64,000 bases of DNA. It comes from Escherichia coli. GTDB taxonomy: Bacteria > Pseudomonadota > Gammaproteobacteria > Enterobacterales > Enterobacteriaceae. Where the stretch lies: assembly GCF_013122565.1 (NCBI RefSeq), contig NZ_CP053258.1, one strand, 5' to 3'. The position numbers were made by a program, and so were the translations under genes. Below, piece by piece: positions 3,314 to 10,302 of this stretch (positions within the stretch are counted from its first letter, which is position 1; each line of letters starts with the position of its first letter). A model generated the notes under the pieces. It was given only the letters and a program-made list of their open reading frames with translations, ran no database searches and was not told the origin of the DNA.

Positions 3314-4134
3314 AGATGAATAAATCCGTCGTAAACATGTACTGCCGGACCCGTCATATATAACGGATGACCCGGACCTTTCCAGGCGATATCAAGACGA
3401 CCACCAGGGAGTTCCACGCGTACTTCTTCGGCCAGCAAACCTTGCTGGATCCCTACCGCCACCGCCGCACACGCGCCGCTGCCGCAGGCCTGGGTTTCTC
3501 CTGCCCCACGCTCATAAACGCGTAAACGAATATGCTCGCGCTTAACCACTTGCATAAAACCGATATTGGCTCGCTCCGGAAAACGCTCGTGGCTTTCCAG
3601 AACAGGACCAAGCGTTTCTACCGCCGCGGTATCGACATCATCGACCTGAATCACGCAATGCGGATTTCCCATCGACACCACGCCGCATAAGATTGTCTGC
3701 TCGGCGGCGCGCATAATATAGGTCTTTTCCGCTTTGTTAGCGCGAAACGGCACAGCGGAAGGTTCGAAGTTGGGTTCGCCCATATTTACGCGGACCAGAT
3801 CATCATCGGTGACGGTCAGAACCATCCGCCCGTTGGCGGTGCTGACGCGGATATCGCGCTTATTGGTCAGCCCTTTCAGACGCACGAAACGGGCAAAGCA
3901 GCGCGCGCCGTTGCCGCACTGCGCCACTTCACTGCCATCAGCATTGAAAATGCGATAGTGAAAATCCAGTTCAGGATCATACGGCGGCTCAACCACCAGC
4001 AACTGATCAAACCCTACCCCCAGGTGCCGATCCGCCAGGCGACGAATCAGTTCCGGTGAAAAAAAGACATTCTGCGTTACCGCGTCGACGACCATAAAAT
4101 CGTTGCCAAGGCCATGCATTTTCGAGAACTGCAT
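3310..4134 (-). CDS. dapF: Diaminopimelate epimerase DapF (274 aa)
   Basis: [18 protein letters not shown]-terminus; start taken at second Met of the track ORF. Confidence 0.93.
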
Positions 4135-4170
4135 CATTTACTCCAATCACGCGGGTACAGAAACTGACTT

Positions 4171-4374
4171 TTAGTAATTCACCTGGGATGGACCATCGCC
4201 AGTGGCACGGTCGTTTTTATCCGGCACCGTGGATTGCGTTTGTGTCTCTACCGGTTTGGTCGGCGGCGGTGCATTTTTATCTGCAGGCGGGAAATAGAGC
4301 GGACCTTTCAGACCGCAGCCCGTCAGGCTGAAGAGAGTAAGTAATACAGTGAGTGCCTTAAACACGTTTTTCAT
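4171..4374 (-). CDS. yifL: Small lipoprotein YifL (67 aa)
   Basis: Signal peptide plus lipobox LTGC, Pro-rich tail; directly upstream of dapF. Confidence 0.85.
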   Translation of the reverse strand: MKNVFKALTVLLTLFSLTGCGLKGPLYFPPADKNAPPPTKPVETQTQSTVPDKNDRATGDGPSQVNY

Positions 4375-4562
4375 TATGGATTGCCTGTAAAGTTCATCGC
4401 TTTCTGCTTTCTATCATCGCAGGAGAAGGCGTAAAAGCAAGCGTTTAGCGACTCTTTATGAAGTCTGAAAAGTGAGGAAATGCTGCGAGTATAACGCTTA
4501 CTCGTGGGGATTTATGTTTTGCTGGTAGTTTCGTGATCGGCACCTCGCGCCAGGATGGCTTT

Positions 4563-6041
4563 ATGCACTATCGCAATGTGGTTTGTTTGTTGTCTTGTTC
4601 GTTGTTTTTATCATCGGCATGGGGATGTCGGCTTGATCCGCCTGAACATAATATTTACCAGAAACAGGGAAAAGGCGTGGAATACCTGCGCCCTTATAAA
4701 GAAACAAATCTTTCTCTACCTGACGTGAATTACAAGAGTTTGCGTCGTTTACCTAATTTATTAATAGACGCAACAACACAAGATGAATGGAATAAAGAAC
4801 CACCTCTGACTGATCTAACAACTGACAACCTCTATGAGGGCGCACAAGCCTGGTATCCCCATTACTCCTGGCATAGCGATGGTCGCTATATCCTCTACGC
4901 GGGTGAAGTTGTGCAAAACCCGCCAGACAAACCTCCCGTCGATGTCGCCTCGTTCAAGGCGTGGGGTGATTTTGCCGCAGATAAACACAGTCTCTATTTC
5001 GAAGGCAAGCGCACCGATAACAATGGCGGGGGAAATCGCTTAGATATCAAAACACTGCATCAGGTGGAATTCCGGCCTCCCTGGGATCCTGACTTACTGG
5101 GGCTGATATTACGTGACGCTAATTTCTTGTATATCAATGGGCATCGCCTCGCAGATCCCGATAGTTTTCGTGTGCTGGCACAAAAGTCATGGGATCAGCG
5201 AGGAAAGTTTTCTACCGCGTTTAATCCCTGTGTGGCTATGCCATTTGGACCCTGGGATACCCTGGCTCGTACACGGACCAAAATCCTGATCAACGGCGAA
5301 CAGCTTGATGCCGACCCGGACACCTTTTCCGTCGTGCGCTGGATGCCCGGCTCACTCTTGACCTGGCGTGATAAAAACGGGCTGCAGCGTAAAGTCCTCG
5401 ACAAGGAAAATCTGGCGTGGGATGAAGATTTAACAAAGCACTGTCTGGATTTTTCTCTGCTGGAAAAGAAAGTGTTCTGGCGTAAAGGGCCTGCTTGTAA
5501 ACAGGAAGAATTACCGGGGCTCGATCCTGAACAGTTCCACCCCATCAGTGATGCTGTCGCCCAGTATCAGGATTCGCTTTATACCATCATCGAAACAGAG
5601 TCTGGTGACCGCAAGCTGGAGATCGTGAAACTTGATGATCCCAATCTTATTATCAACAAACGTTTCAACGCCGGGAAACGCCACGGCTATTTACTTACGC
5701 GTGCCGAAGGGTGGCCATACCATTCCGGTTTACACGTGTTTGAATCTGACGGACCGCTGATCTTACTGGATAACCGCTCTCCGGATGAACGCGAAGCCCA
5801 TCTTAATGACCATCCCTTTTTGCGCAGATGGTATGCCCGCGATAACCGCTACGTTTACAGCTTTGATGGCGCGCAGCTCTGGCGATACCGCACTGCGGAT
5901 CCGAAACAAGTTCGCTTAATCTGGAAGGAACAACATTCGGGATATGGCTACGGGGTAAATTACAAAACGGGATATCTGGACGGAAAAATTACCGATGACG
6001 GCGAATTTATTCCTGCCCCGCGCAATGAGGCGACAAAATGA
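4563..6041 (+). CDS. Exported repeat protein, DKNYY-like, function unknown (492 aa from ATG 4563; alternative GTG start at 4533)
   Basis: AGGA RBS 8 nt before ATG 4563; N-terminus MHYRNVVCLLSCSLFLSSAWGC looks like a signal peptide, possibly lipoprotein; internal repeats such as NFLYINGHRLADPDSFRVL and KILINGEQLDADPDTFSVV; paralog of the next ORF. Confidence 0.75.
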   Translation: MHYRNVVCLLSCSLFLSSAWGCRLDPPEHNIYQKQGKGVEYLRPYKETNLSLPDVNYKSLRRLPNLLIDATTQDEWNKEPPLTDLTTDNLYEGAQAWYPHYSWHSDGRYILYAGEVVQNPPDKPPVDVASFKAWGDFAADKHSLYFEGKRTDNNGGGNRLDIKTLHQVEFRPPWDPDLLGLILRDANFLYINGHRLADPDSFRVLAQKSWDQRGKFSTAFNPCVAMPFGPWDTLARTRTKILINGEQLDADPDTFSVVRWMPGSLLTWRDKNGLQRKVLDKENLAWDEDLTKHCLDFSLLEKKVFWRKGPACKQEELPGLDPEQFHPISDAVAQYQDSLYTIIETESGDRKLEIVKLDDPNLIINKRFNAGKRHGYLLTRAEGWPYHSGLHVFESDGPLILLDNRSPDEREAHLNDHPFLRRWYARDNRYVYSFDGAQLWRYRTADPKQVRLIWKEQHSGYGYGVNYKTGYLDGKITDDGEFIPAPRNEATK

Positions 6042-7348
6042 ATGGTCAAATAATCACTGTTGCACTCATCCTGTTGGGGCACATATTTCTGACTCCTGCT
6101 GTACAGGCCATAGGGTTCGACTATTACAATGATCACGGTGTCATGTCTTACGGTAAAGGTTATGGGGAGGATGAGAAAATCATTGCCCAATTTCCGAAGA
6201 TGAACAGGGCCGATTTGCGCCTTGTGAAAAATATCTCTGGGAAGACGGGCTATATACCCACCGATGAAATAAGCATAAAAAATGAGGAATACCACTGGGT
6301 GACAGACGGCCACGTTATTCTCTGGCGTGGCAAAATCGTTAGCAATCCACCGGGAACACCCACTGTCGATATTGCCAGCTTTCAGGCTATGGGCCGCTTC
6401 GCGGTCGATAAATATAGCCTCTATTTTGACGGACAGCGTACCGAAAGTAATAGCGGCGCGTCACGTGTTGATCTGGCGACACTAAAAGCTATCGAAGGTA
6501 ACTCTACCACGCTGGTGGATAGTAAAAATCTCTATTTGTCCGGTCGACGTCAGGGGAGCAGCAGTAATGTTACTGTATTAGAAAAAAGATGGTGGGGTAT
6601 TAATCCACGTCTTATGAGTGTAAACAGAAATTTGTATTCCAATGATCTGCTTATCCGCAGTGGGCAGAATATTTATTTAAATGGCGTTCACCTTACGGCG
6701 AATGCAGACTCATTTGAGATAATTCGCTGGATACCTCATTCACTGCTGGTTTTTCGCGACAATAAGGGTATGCATCGTTATCCCTTTGGGCAATTGTCTG
6801 GCAAAGCGATACCCGTAGATGATGACGTCTCTTTTGAAGTAGGGGAAAGTCGCGTTCGCTGGCGTAAACAGCTCACGTCCGACCGTCAGTGGAGCAAGTG
6901 GATAGACCTACCAGATATTGAACCTGAACAATTCCATCTGATTACTGGCAATATTGCGCAATATAAAGATCGGTTGTATGTAACAAAATTATCGACATTT
7001 GGTGAAGACCAGCTTGAGATAATCCCGCTGGATACGCCAGACCTGGTCATTGATCGCTCATTTAATAGCGGCAAACAGCATGCTTATTTTATCCGCCAAT
7101 TACGGTCAAAGAGCGTGCAAATTATTCCAGTTAACGGTCCGCTAACTAAAAACGATCGCTTCGCTTATGACGATCGCAATGTTTATACATGGACCGATAC
7201 AGAGGTAAGGATTACGCCCTCCCCCTGCCCGGCGAAAACACGCGTCAGAGAAGAGAATGTGCGTGAACTTCACAACAGAGACATTATTATTCCGTTGACG
7301 GATGAATCATGCCAGAACGCAGCAGACGAGCAAACTTTGAAGCCCTGA
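6038..7348 (+). CDS. Exported repeat protein, DKNYY-like paralog of upstream gene (436 aa)
   Basis: Start ATG overlaps upstream stop as ATGA; GAGG RBS; signal peptide MNGQIITVALILLGHIFLTPAVQA; shares blocks DKYSLYFDGQRT, NIYLNGVHLTANADSFEII, EPEQFHLITGNIAQYKDRLY with upstream protein. Confidence 0.75.
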   Translation: MNGQIITVALILLGHIFLTPAVQAIGFDYYNDHGVMSYGKGYGEDEKIIAQFPKMNRADLRLVKNISGKTGYIPTDEISIKNEEYHWVTDGHVILWRGKIVSNPPGTPTVDIASFQAMGRFAVDKYSLYFDGQRTESNSGASRVDLATLKAIEGNSTTLVDSKNLYLSGRRQGSSSNVTVLEKRWWGINPRLMSVNRNLYSNDLLIRSGQNIYLNGVHLTANADSFEIIRWIPHSLLVFRDNKGMHRYPFGQLSGKAIPVDDDVSFEVGESRVRWRKQLTSDRQWSKWIDLPDIEPEQFHLITGNIAQYKDRLYVTKLSTFGEDQLEIIPLDTPDLVIDRSFNSGKQHAYFIRQLRSKSVQIIPVNGPLTKNDRFAYDDRNVYTWTDTEVRITPSPCPAKTRVREENVRELHNRDIIIPLTDESCQNAADEQTLKP

Positions 7349-7395
7349 CCCCATGCCGCTATACTGCCGCCATCACTTAAAAACAGGATACAACA

Positions 7396-7716
7396 ATGAA
7401 CGACAGTGAATTTCATCGCCTGACTGATCAACTCTGGCTGACCATTGAAGAACGCCTGGACGACTGGGATGGCGACAGCGATATCGACTGCGAAATCAAC
7501 GGCGGTGTACTGACCATTACCTTTGAAAACGGCAGCAAAATCATTATCAACCGCCAGGAACCGCTGCACCAGGTATGGCTGGCAACCAAACAGGGCGGCT
7601 ACCATTTTGACCTGAAAGGCGATGAGTGGATTTGCGATCGCAGCGGCGAAACCTTCTGGGATTTGCTGGAACAGGCGGCGACGCAGCAGGCGGGTGAAAC
7701 AGTCAGTTTCCGCTAA
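7396..7716 (+). CDS. cyaY: Frataxin homolog CyaY (106 aa)
   Basis: [73 protein letters not shown] matches CyaY. Confidence 0.95.
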
Positions 7717-7724
7717 GATTGCAT

Positions 7725-7748
7725 GCCGGATAAGCCTCGCTTTCCGGC
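7725..7748. terminator. Hairpin between convergent cyaY and cyaA (GCCGGA..TCCGGC), likely bidirectional terminator
   Basis: Inverted repeat gccgga / tccggc at 7725-7730 and 7743-7748 in the 39-bp gap between the two stop codons. Confidence 0.35.
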
Positions 7749-7755
7749 ACGTTCA

Positions 7756-10302
7756 TCACGAAAAATACTGCTGTAATAGCGGCGTATCGTGATCCTGATT
7801 GGCAGGCGGCATGTTACCGATAGATTTTGTGCGGAACGGAATCACCTGTTCACGACCATCAACCTTCACAATCTGATAGAACTGCGGCAGGTTGAAGTTG
7901 ATGAAGCTTGAGCCGTATGTAAAACGGTCATGCGATGACGAGTAGAAGCGACTGACGTCACGCACCAGCTCCTCTTTGCTGCCTTCGCAGTGGTGATATA
8001 CCTCAACCCGGTTGCTTTCGTCGAGAATGTAGATATTAAAGCCATTCTCGTCTTGCGTTTCTTCGAAGAAGAACTGGATGATCCCTTCGCTGGCAAAGCC
8101 GTCCACCACCGCCGGTAATTTGACGTGATTGGTTTCAACCTGCACTGACAGGCCGTGCAGTTTGTTATGCGAAATAGCGCCATAAAACTCGATGGCGTTT
8201 TCCAGTTTCTGTACCGATACATTCAGGCGTTCGAAGAACAACCCCCAGGTTTGACCAGAAACGCGCAGCGCCTTGAAGCGTCCGGTTTCCTGGCGGGTGC
8301 TGGAAAGACGCAGTTCAATACACTCAGAAACCAGTTGCTGCACGCGAGTACGGATTAACCCGCGCAGATGCTGACTATAACAGAAGACTTCCACGCTATC
8401 TGGCGGTGCGGCGTCCTGATGCATTTTGCCGAGAATAGTTTTCAGGGCTTCGATCATCGATTGCTCGCCGTTGAAGTGCAGCGTACGCACTTCGTTCCAC
8501 GAGTTGCGGTACAGCAGGTCAACGCTACCTACCAGGCAATTTTGATTCTCGCCAAAGCTGAAGACATCCAGCTTACGGAAATCGAAATGCACCACCTGAT
8601 TGCGGAACGCCGCTGTTGGGTCATATTCCAGGTTAACGATAATCGCCAGATGGCGGATCTCACACGGGCTGTAGAGCGCCTTCGGTGTCGGTGCAGGTAA
8701 GCGCAGCGGGAAATGGTGCGACACGTCGGCGACCATCTCCTGCAACTTAGGCAAATCGACAATGCCGTTACCTTTAATATACAAACGGGTGCGCGAGGTC
8801 AGCAGGCCATTAAACCATGCCCACGCCACCAGTTTATTCAGGTAACGGTTATATTCCAGCGGCTGATGGCTGATGATCGACTCAATATTTGGCGCGCGGT
8901 TATACAGATACCAACCTGAACGGTTAGCACGGCCCGGCGGCACATAAATAAAGGTCAGATTCGGTTCCGAGAGATCGGGTGAAATCTGCGGGTTTACCAG
9001 CGTTACTTTACCTGGCAATGCTTCAAACGCGGCATACAGCTTACGCGTCAGCACACCGATATCCTGCGGACTGGCGGAGACGCTAAGGTTATTGCGACGC
9101 GCAAAGCGGATCAGATTACGGTAGCTCTGCATCATCGCGTCGAGCAGCTCGTTGTGTGCCTCACGCACCTGATCAATCTTCCAGTTAGCGCGGTTATCGA
9201 GCATTGCCAGACGAGCTTCGTCCCAACCCCACTCGCTCACTAACTGGCTCAACACTGCGCGACGCCAGCCTACGCAGGCGCGTTCACGGCTGAGCTTTTC
9301 GCACACTTTTAAATAGAAGCAGCGACGTACTAAATCCAGACGGGTAAAATCTTCAATCGCCGTCAGGTATTCAGTAACACGCTCCAGCATCATGCAGTAT
9401 GGATCGAGACCAAACGATACAATCTCGCCGTCGTGCAAACGCTGTTTGATATCTTTCGCCAGCAGACGTGGGTTCGGGTATTCCCAGGAATAGGCTTCCA
9501 GCAGCAGTGTTTTCAGTACCGCTTTGTATGGGGAATCGATACTCTTGTAGAGCTGCCAAAGGCTGGCACCAAAGTACTCTTCAGCAGAAAGCGAGCTTAA
9601 GCCACCGAGATCCAGCCATTCATTTGGCGTCAGCACGCCCTGCGCGTAAAGCGTCATCACATAGTCGTCGTAATGCTCTTCTTCGTCGCACGGCACCATA
9701 TTCCACAGAATACGCTTACCGGCGAGACGCACGGCGGTACGATAAAATTCGTCAAGCAGCAGTATATGCTGGGTGGAGCCACAATCTTCGCCCCCCAGGC
9801 TGCCGCTTTCATTATGACGGAAGCGGTTTTCATCAATCAGGAAGAAGCTGACTTCCACACCCAGCGAGGCGGCCCAGCTTTCCAGCAGGCTGCATTTACG
9901 TTGTAGTAACTGGCGCTCTTCGCTATCGAGCCAGGATTGATGACAGACCCAGATATCCAGGTCAGAGGAACAACTTTGCCCTACGGACGAGGTGCTGCCC
10001 ATGGTGTATACACCAGTAATTGGAAGCTCACCTTTCGGCGGGTCCTGTACTGACATTCCACGATACAGTTCAAGCTCGTTCAGGTAGTGGCGTTGAGTTT
10101 CATCAGGCGTGTAAAGGCAAATGCCTTTGGGAACGTTACCATCAAGGTAACCCGGCATTAGCGGATGGTGATAGTGCAACAATGTCGGCAGTAGACTGTA
10201 GACCTGTTGGAATGCAGGCCCCATAGCAGCAAGCGCGCGATCCACACGCAATTGATTTATGGCATCCAGTCTCTGTTTCAGAGTCTCAATATAGAGGTAC
10301 AA
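7756..10302 (-). CDS. cyaA: Adenylate cyclase CyaA (848 aa), TTG start
   Basis: Product begins (M)[54 protein letters not shown]; start codon at 10300-10302 is TTG. Confidence 0.95.

Follow-up and report, generated by a model that had tools for sequence, protein, structure and literature searches.

The window analyzed here is a stretch of 64,000 nucleotides of Escherichia coli DNA (NCBI RefSeq assembly GCF_013122565.1, contig NZ_CP053258.1) in which the genes follow the order yigB, xerC, yigA, dapF and lptM (minus strand), two ORFs on the plus strand, cyaY (plus strand), cyaA (minus strand), and hemCDX. The core genes are approximately 98% identical to those of E. coli (yigA 98.0%, dapF 97.5%, cyaA 98.9%). 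The match of the cyaY product to Pfam Frataxin_Cyay is full-length with an E value of 7.8e-34, and RefSeq annotates the matching E. coli loci as "iron donor protein CyaY." The convergent cyaY and cyaA genes are separated by a gap of 39 nt, and the stable hairpin located there, which contrasts with the gap between cyaY and the ORF that precedes it, where folding is no better than in shuffled sequences, is likely the 3' end of any cyaY transcript. This hairpin overlaps the cyaA stop codon and contains a REP-like GCCGGATAAG sequence; neither strand has a U-tract. The coordinates of all features are collected in Table 1.

Table 1. Features of the region from lptM to the end of cyaY, in window coordinates
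Feature	Position	Strand	Evidence
lptM	4171-4374	minus	
Inserted DNA relative to the compact ancestor, about 2.9 kb	4450-7357		MAFFT; boundaries accurate to within a few nt
Weak sigma-70-like candidate promoter for the pair, ATAACG-16-TATGTT	4491-4518	plus	Relaxed hexamer scan, 7/12
Gene 1, DKNYY-like protein	4563-6041	plus	Pfam DKNYY, sub-threshold, 20.7 bits
Segment missing in K-12-like E. coli, 2,555 bp	4720-7274		Local blastn breakpoints
Gene 2, DKNYY-family protein, signal-peptide-like N-terminus	6038-7348	plus	Pfam DKNYY, 25.6 bits (cutoff 25)
Predicted -35 element TTGAAG, insert-supplied, Leu-Lys codons near the end of gene 2	7337-7342	plus	Promoter scan
Gene 2 TGA stop codon, within the -35/-10 spacer	7346-7348	plus	ORF list, sequence
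Predicted -10 element TATACT, ancestral	7360-7365	plus	Conservation, 80/81
GC-rich discriminator GCCGCC and predicted start A7372	7366-7372	plus	Column conservation, K-12 5' end
Predicted cyaY leader, 24 nt; Shine-Dalgarno AGGA at 7385-7388, 7 nt upstream of ATG	7372-7395	plus	Sequence
cyaY, frataxin homolog, 106 aa	7396-7716	plus	Pfam PF01491
Hairpin between convergent cyaY and cyaA	7717-7757		Fold -18.3 kcal/mol, z = -2.44

The two ORFs located between lptM and cyaY, referred to as gene 1 and gene 2, overlap by an ATGA start/stop sequence and are paralogs, the proteins sharing 35% identity (BLASTP, E 2e-61), and reading of the translations indicates that both N-termini resemble signal peptides. 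A search for relatives of the pair in NCBIfam, PADLOC, and the PDB gave no match and left the borderline Pfam DKNYY assignment, and a literature search on "DKNYY" returned a single paper, on Parvimonas micra. The true start of gene 1 is probably the ATG at 4563 rather than the GTG at 4533, as an AGGA and this ATG are kept across genera in the alignment and the CFT073 annotation begins at the equivalent ATG. The G+C content is 0.49 for gene 1, 0.455 for gene 2, and 0.424 for the region upstream of gene 1, compared with 0.522 for the window. Upstream of gene 1, a relaxed hexamer scan, which is blind to activator-dependent or alternative-sigma promoters, yielded nothing better than a candidate matching the consensus at 7 of 12 positions, whose -10-like hexamer (TATGTT/TATGGT/TATGCT) is partly conserved in the cross-genus alignment. 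The 5' non-coding region of the insert also contains, at 4483-4507, a terminator-like hairpin (CGAGTA...TACTCG) followed by GGATTTATGTTTT, and this hairpin overlaps the weak promoter candidate of the pair.

The first-pass annotation had drawn attention to the 47 nt that separate gene 2 from cyaY, to the TATACT found within them, and to the lack of a terminator. All these coordinates were verified in the sequence, the gap extending from the gene 2 stop codon at 7346-7348 to the cyaY ATG at 7396 (7349-7395). The absence of a terminator holds as well: a scan of positions 4000-8000 detected no hairpin followed by a T-run in or near the gap, the gap itself is devoid of T-run, and the RNA fold of 7290-7410 (-15.5 kcal/mol, z = +1.0) is matched or surpassed by 168 of 200 shuffled sequences, so that a GC-rich hairpin followed by a U-tract, the signature of an intrinsic (Rho-independent) terminator, was not found between gene 2 and cyaY. 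An Rfam search of the gap and of the region upstream of gene 1 gave no credible known RNA element. Short same-strand intergenic gaps without a terminator are common. Since only 47 untranslated nt and no intrinsic terminator lie between the two genes, a polymerase reaching the end of gene 2 should continue into cyaY, and read-through from gene 2 to cyaY thus appears structurally possible.

The promoter scan pointed to a TTGAAG-17-TATACT combination with 9 of 12 consensus matches. TATACT matches the sigma-70 -10 consensus TATAAT at five of six positions, with the A at position 2 and the T at position 6, and TTGAAG, which corresponds to the Leu-Lys pair in the C-terminal QTLKP* of gene 2, matches TTGACA at four of six with a spacer of 17 bp, within the 16-18 bp range. 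Taken alone, these features of the gap are at chance level: four promoter-like sites were observed in 4 kb against 6.0 expected from shuffled sequences, and by our own arithmetic a five-of-six match to TATAAT would occur within 47 nt in about 20% of cases. What raises TATACT above chance is its exact occurrence in 80 of 81 species-level sequences at a near-fixed distance from the ATG.

Indeed, a species-representative scan with CyaY gave 80 Enterobacteriaceae loci, and the conservation set comprised 81 species-level cyaY upstream sequences, in which TATACT precedes the ATG by 27-31 nt (38 nt in one case), with and without an insert alike, and forms the most conserved block upstream of cyaY. 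The discriminator columns have a conservation of 0.67-0.91 and the A located at +12 from the first T of TATACT a conservation of 0.94, when most upstream columns lie between 0.3 and 0.7; an A-rich/GGA block of the leader is kept across species. Between the -10 and the A at +1, the discriminator GCCGCC, made of G and C only, is conserved across genera. In E. coli, such discriminators are typical of promoters that are downregulated by ppGpp/DksA, and by this resemblance cyaY may be under stringent control.

The hexamer placed 17 nt from TATACT follows the type of allele. In alleles with a compact lptM-cyaY region it is CTGCAA in 31 of 60 cases, CTGCGC in 10, and TTTCTA in 6, CTGCAA matching the -35 consensus at three of six positions, one fewer than TTGAAG. 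Every DKNYY-type insert (Escherichia, Pseudocitrobacter, Citrobacter sp. FP75, Phytobacter, and Kosakonia) presents TTGAAG or TTGATG at exactly 17 nt, and in the Phytobacter/Kosakonia version the hexamer is kept at this distance although the spacer sequence is unrelated. In Phytobacter (locus L061), TTGATG is non-coding, the ORF ending at 7926 of the locus and TATACT standing at about 7965. The sole sequence among the 81 without TATACT is that of Atlantibacter hermannii (locus L037, 7830-8000), which lost the element to a DKNYY insert. A distant DKNYY gene stops 172 nt upstream in this species, and the cyaY ATG is preceded at a distance of about 90 nt by a perfect TATAAT. The whole promoter seems to have been replaced naturally in A. 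hermannii, and TATACT is thus not indispensable. The conserved 3' end of gene 2 shared by E. coli and Citrobacter sp. FP75 was considered as proof of promoter constraint and dropped, given that, by our estimate, chance alone would produce about two identical runs of 14 nt in a gene with 69% identity.

The genes of the pair had been taken for an insert in the cyaY upstream region, and comparison across the family bears this out. In about 60 species, from genera that include Salmonella, Citrobacter, Klebsiella, Raoultella, Kluyvera, Enterobacter, and Kosakonia, lptM and cyaY are separated by a spacer of 128-190 bp, mostly 135-139 bp (about 138 bp), which constitutes a compact divergent promoter region in most Enterobacteriaceae; because so many species have this compact region, the pair is a true insertion. 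The compact state is ancestral, since the segment replaced by the insert can be aligned from one compact allele to another. DKNYY homologs occur only sporadically at the site, namely in Escherichia, Pseudocitrobacter vendiensis, Citrobacter sp. FP75, Phytobacter diazotrophicus, and Atlantibacter hermannii, with remnants in Kosakonia sp. S29 and Superficieibacter.

The boundaries of the insert were obtained by aligning the flanks of the window (MAFFT) to the intergenic regions of 12 compact alleles. On the left, homology covers window positions 4372-4449 and includes an invariant block at 4408-4441; on the right, it restarts at (CGC)TATACT, homology to the compact alleles ending 0-4 nt upstream of TATACT. 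The right boundary agrees in same-genus pairs (Citrobacter FP75/wls619, Phytobacter diazotrophicus L061/ursingii L067, and K. michiganensis/K. oxytoca). About 30 ancestral nt carrying the -35 hexamer CTGCAA and the spacer are missing from the insert-bearing allele. The proposal that the insert supplies a new promoter can accordingly be retained in part: its -35 TTGAAG comes from the last codons of gene 2, whereas TATACT is ancestral and present without any insert. The invariant block, 34 nt of sequence TTTCTATCATCGCAGGAGAAGGCGTAAAAGCAAG located 9 nt before the left edge of the insert, is near-identical in all aligned genera; read on the minus strand as TTGCTT-16-TGcGATGAT, it is a plausible extended -10 promoter candidate for lptM-dapF.

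As for the nature of the inserted DNA, a repeat search revealed no terminal repeats at its ends. A target-site duplication or att-like direct repeat was suspected by eye from the resemblance of ACTCTTTATGAAGTCTGA on the left to ACTTTGAAGCCCTGA on the right and was rejected, as 910 of 2000 shuffles score as well and the other insert-bearing loci show nothing of the kind. Neither inverted repeats, nor a target-site duplication, nor a transposase or integrase were found that would mark a mobile element, and the only ORFs of the insert are the two DKNYY paralogs.

Among the 5,425 complete E. coli genomes with a match, positions 4100-7800 are covered to 80% or more in 1,393 and to 31% only in most of the rest. 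The K-12-like strain 8A (locus L002) is devoid of exactly the segment 4720-7274. What is left of the pair is a decayed stretch of 187 nt from the 5' end of gene 1, and the final 74 nt of gene 2; the gap is complete, its 47 nt being 100% identical to those of the window, and PGAP calls the remnant a DKNYY pseudogene. Because both ends of the pair and the gap are retained, E. coli strains without the pair result from a secondary deletion. The comparison with strains lacking the insert that had been suggested as a check does not give access to a naive state, as the 2,555-bp internal deletion keeps the junction. The K-12-type breakpoints are identical in E. whittamii and Escherichia sp. E1V33, which indicates one scar allele across species. 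Strain E69 carries another deletion, between the 13-nt direct repeats ACTATCGCAATGT/ACGATCGCAATGT at 4567-4579 and 7170-7182, and the independent deletions (K-12 type, E69 type, and that of Kosakonia S29) all keep at least 120 nt adjoining cyaY. Furthermore, an 81-nt junction query finds matches over at least 80% of its length, with at least 95% identity, in no fewer than 4,863 of 5,426 complete E. coli genomes. An extra gene with a DUF3304 domain lies between lptM and gene 1 in some strains (such as E. coli UTAK-4, locus L003 2125-2679), and gene 1 carries a frameshift in E. coli HH97 (locus L001 1934-3443), the strain that matches the window most closely. The DKNYY module is in flux within E. 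coli.

The deletion scar is also spanned by yzcX (b3808), a K-12 ORF antisense to the 5' end of cyaY (NC_000913.3, 3993850-3994335; window 7270-7605, minus strand) that looks like a spurious ORF. A "cyaY-yzcX divergent excludon" described in a 2025 paper (PMC12288877) rests on the yzcX annotation. It was considered as evidence for read-through and rejected: since the antisense overlap of yzcX with cyaY exists by annotation, the excludon is uninformative on read-through.

A literature search on E. coli and Salmonella transcriptome studies for published cyaY start sites or operon data gave a match in Mendoza-Vargas et al. (2009, PLoS One 4:e7526; PMC2760140) only and returned no transcript data from pair-bearing strains. 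Table S1 of that study places the K-12 cyaY 5' end at -24 from the start codon and gives predicted boxes tgcaAACTTTGAAgccc for the -35 and tgccGCTATACTgccg for the -10; this 5' end stems from 454-based HTPS with a frequency of 1 (one read) and quality class 3, in a strain that carries no intact pair and by a method that alone does not separate primary from processed 5' ends. Position -24 corresponds to A7372 of the window, 7 nt after TATACT, that is, to the conserved A. The K-12 5' end is therefore corroborating rather than decisive, falling exactly where conservation predicts. The K-12 promoter resembles that of the window in having an identical sequence from the -35 to the ATG, with the same boxes and with the K-12 start listed at -24, and differs from it in that the DKNYY genes of K-12 are reduced to a scar when those of the window are intact. 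Because these genes are intact, upstream transcription could reach cyaY in the window through 2.8 kb of translated genes.

Taken together, these data lead us to propose that cyaY is probably transcribed mainly from a sigma-70 hybrid promoter of its own that spans the gene 2 stop codon, with read-through as a minor source. A module of about 2.9 kb made of two paralogous DKNYY-family genes was inserted between the back-to-back lptM and cyaY promoters and displaced the ancestral -35 CTGCAA together with its spacer. The last sense codons of gene 2 would then supply a new -35, TTGAAG, at an unchanged spacing of 17 bp, everything from the -10 onward being the ancestral enterobacterial cyaY promoter. 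Transcription is predicted to start at A7372 and to produce a 24-nt leader leading through the AGGA Shine-Dalgarno sequence to cyaY. Polymerases arriving from gene 2 would run on into cyaY and make a minor addition to its mRNA, a share presumed to be small because the pair has no recognizable strong promoter. Read-through would not be the main source of cyaY transcripts, since cyaY has its own conserved promoter and the candidate of the pair matches only 7 of 12 positions. The sequences establish the anatomy of the junction, its conservation, the limits of the insert, and the lack of a terminator, and the -24 end in K-12 comes from the literature; the relative contributions of promoter and read-through are what we infer, and read-through could be larger than this.

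According to a first alternative, TATACT would drive cyaY in full isolation, upstream transcription being essentially absent either because the pair is silent, for instance as low-GC DNA bound by H-NS, or because Rho acts at the C-rich junction. The 78-nt windows starting at 7320-7340 have a C/G ratio of 1.9-2.0, above the 95th percentile of 1.81 for the 64-kb sequence, and are thus rut-like; the G+C content is low upstream of gene 1 and in gene 2 relative to the window, and the promoter candidate of the pair is weak. Rho needs about 70-80 nt of free RNA. The C-rich and G-poor junction leaves room for Rho-dependent insulation, though the 47 untranslated nt between translated gene 2 and the cyaY start codon are short for Rho loading and composition alone is weak evidence. 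We regard this first alternative as unlikely. A second alternative, in which cyaY would chiefly be the third gene of a gene 1-gene 2-cyaY transcript initiated at a promoter of the insert and in which TATACT would contribute little, is in line with the presence of three genes on one strand, with the ATGA overlap followed by a 47-nt gap without intrinsic terminator, and with the shortness of the untranslated stretch for Rho loading. It is, however, at odds with a -10 conserved in 80 of 81 species regardless of insert, with the K-12 5' end mapped at -24 (PMC2760140), and with the unconvincing score of the best promoter upstream of gene 1. Linkage is not conserved either: about 60 of 80 species and some three quarters of complete E. 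coli genomes have cyaY but not the pair, and the pair, lower in G+C, is often deleted or decayed when cyaY is always kept. We consider this operon arrangement rather improbable, and the control of cyaY by a promoter of the insert, which the first-pass annotation had envisaged, is unlikely given that the -10 is ancestral and that the K-12 5' end falls inside the gap of an identical junction. Lastly, the reading in which both hexamers, TATACT and TTGAAG, arose by chance and another site drives cyaY, which agrees with the below-expectation yield of the promoter scan, is extremely improbable in view of the exactness of TATACT in 80 of 81 species while flanking columns vary, of the mapped K-12 5' end 7 nt downstream, and of the lack of any other site with at least 9 of 12 matches on the plus strand between 5654 and 7395.

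The hybrid promoter that we favor for cyaY has counterparts among known systems. In the hybrid promoters generated by IS elements, an outward-facing -35 pairs with a resident -10. The cyaY promoter resembles them in that the resident -10 is kept and the incoming -35 stands at 17-bp spacing; it differs from them by the absence of transposase, inverted repeats, and target-site duplication and by a -35 located in the coding end of an ordinary gene. Internal promoters lying in the 3' end of a co-oriented upstream gene, with no terminator between, are common in bacteria. Here too, the promoter overlaps the upstream stop codon and the short gap allows both own and read-through transcription, whereas the window combines accessory, horizontally acquired genes upstream with a conserved housekeeping gene downstream, and the origin of the arrangement is traceable. 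With the compact lptM-cyaY region of Salmonella, Citrobacter, Klebsiella, and other genera, the window shares the lptM-proximal 75 nt, the -10, the discriminator, the leader, and the Shine-Dalgarno sequence, and it differs by about 2.9 kb in place of the approximately 30 nt that carry CTGCAA and the spacer.

Other cargo is found at the same site. In Klebsiella michiganensis (locus L035, 1003-8000), the insert spans 7 kb and carries genes for a regulator of the GntR/aminotransferase type, for an amidohydrolase, and for two MFS transporters. The MFS gene at the end of this insert runs in the same direction as cyaY and stops 7 nt upstream of TATACT, again with no terminator. One MAG carries a lipid A acyltransferase gene at the lptM-cyaY site. 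A motif, CTTTATGAAGTCTGAAAAG, is located at the left end of the insert, at 4454-4472 of the window and at about 1085-1105 of locus L035, and also in loci L054, L076, and L037. It is common to inserts with different cargo (DKNYY, K. michiganensis, the MAG, Superficieibacter, and A. hermannii) and may be a regulatory site or the relic of a common ancestral island. We tentatively raise the idea, to which we grant little probability, that the few bases just upstream of the cyaY -10 are a recurrent landing or turnover site for accessory DNA across Enterobacteriaceae and that cyaY dosage then differs by lineage, coupled to the expression of the accessory genes. If this were true, each arrival would rewire the -35 half of the cyaY promoter (the whole promoter in A. 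hermannii), and the tuning of ISC Fe-S assembly would differ measurably between insert-bearing, deleted, and compact lineages.

The reconstitution of a promoter at an insertion junction is a known kind of event, the K-12 boxes were already published in 2009, and nothing is overturned by the present analysis. What it brings is an account in which the core promoter of cyaY would have survived an insertion that removed its -35, and in which the standard K-12 cyaY promoter would be the product of an insertion and a later deletion. Variation between strains at this locus would then leave the cyaY promoter intact, and the junction would offer a traceable example of the end of a coding sequence taking over as a -35 element. 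As CyaY modulates ISC-dependent Fe-S cluster assembly (reviewed in PMC8593673), the way in which cyaY is transcribed bears on Fe-S homeostasis across E. coli lineages.
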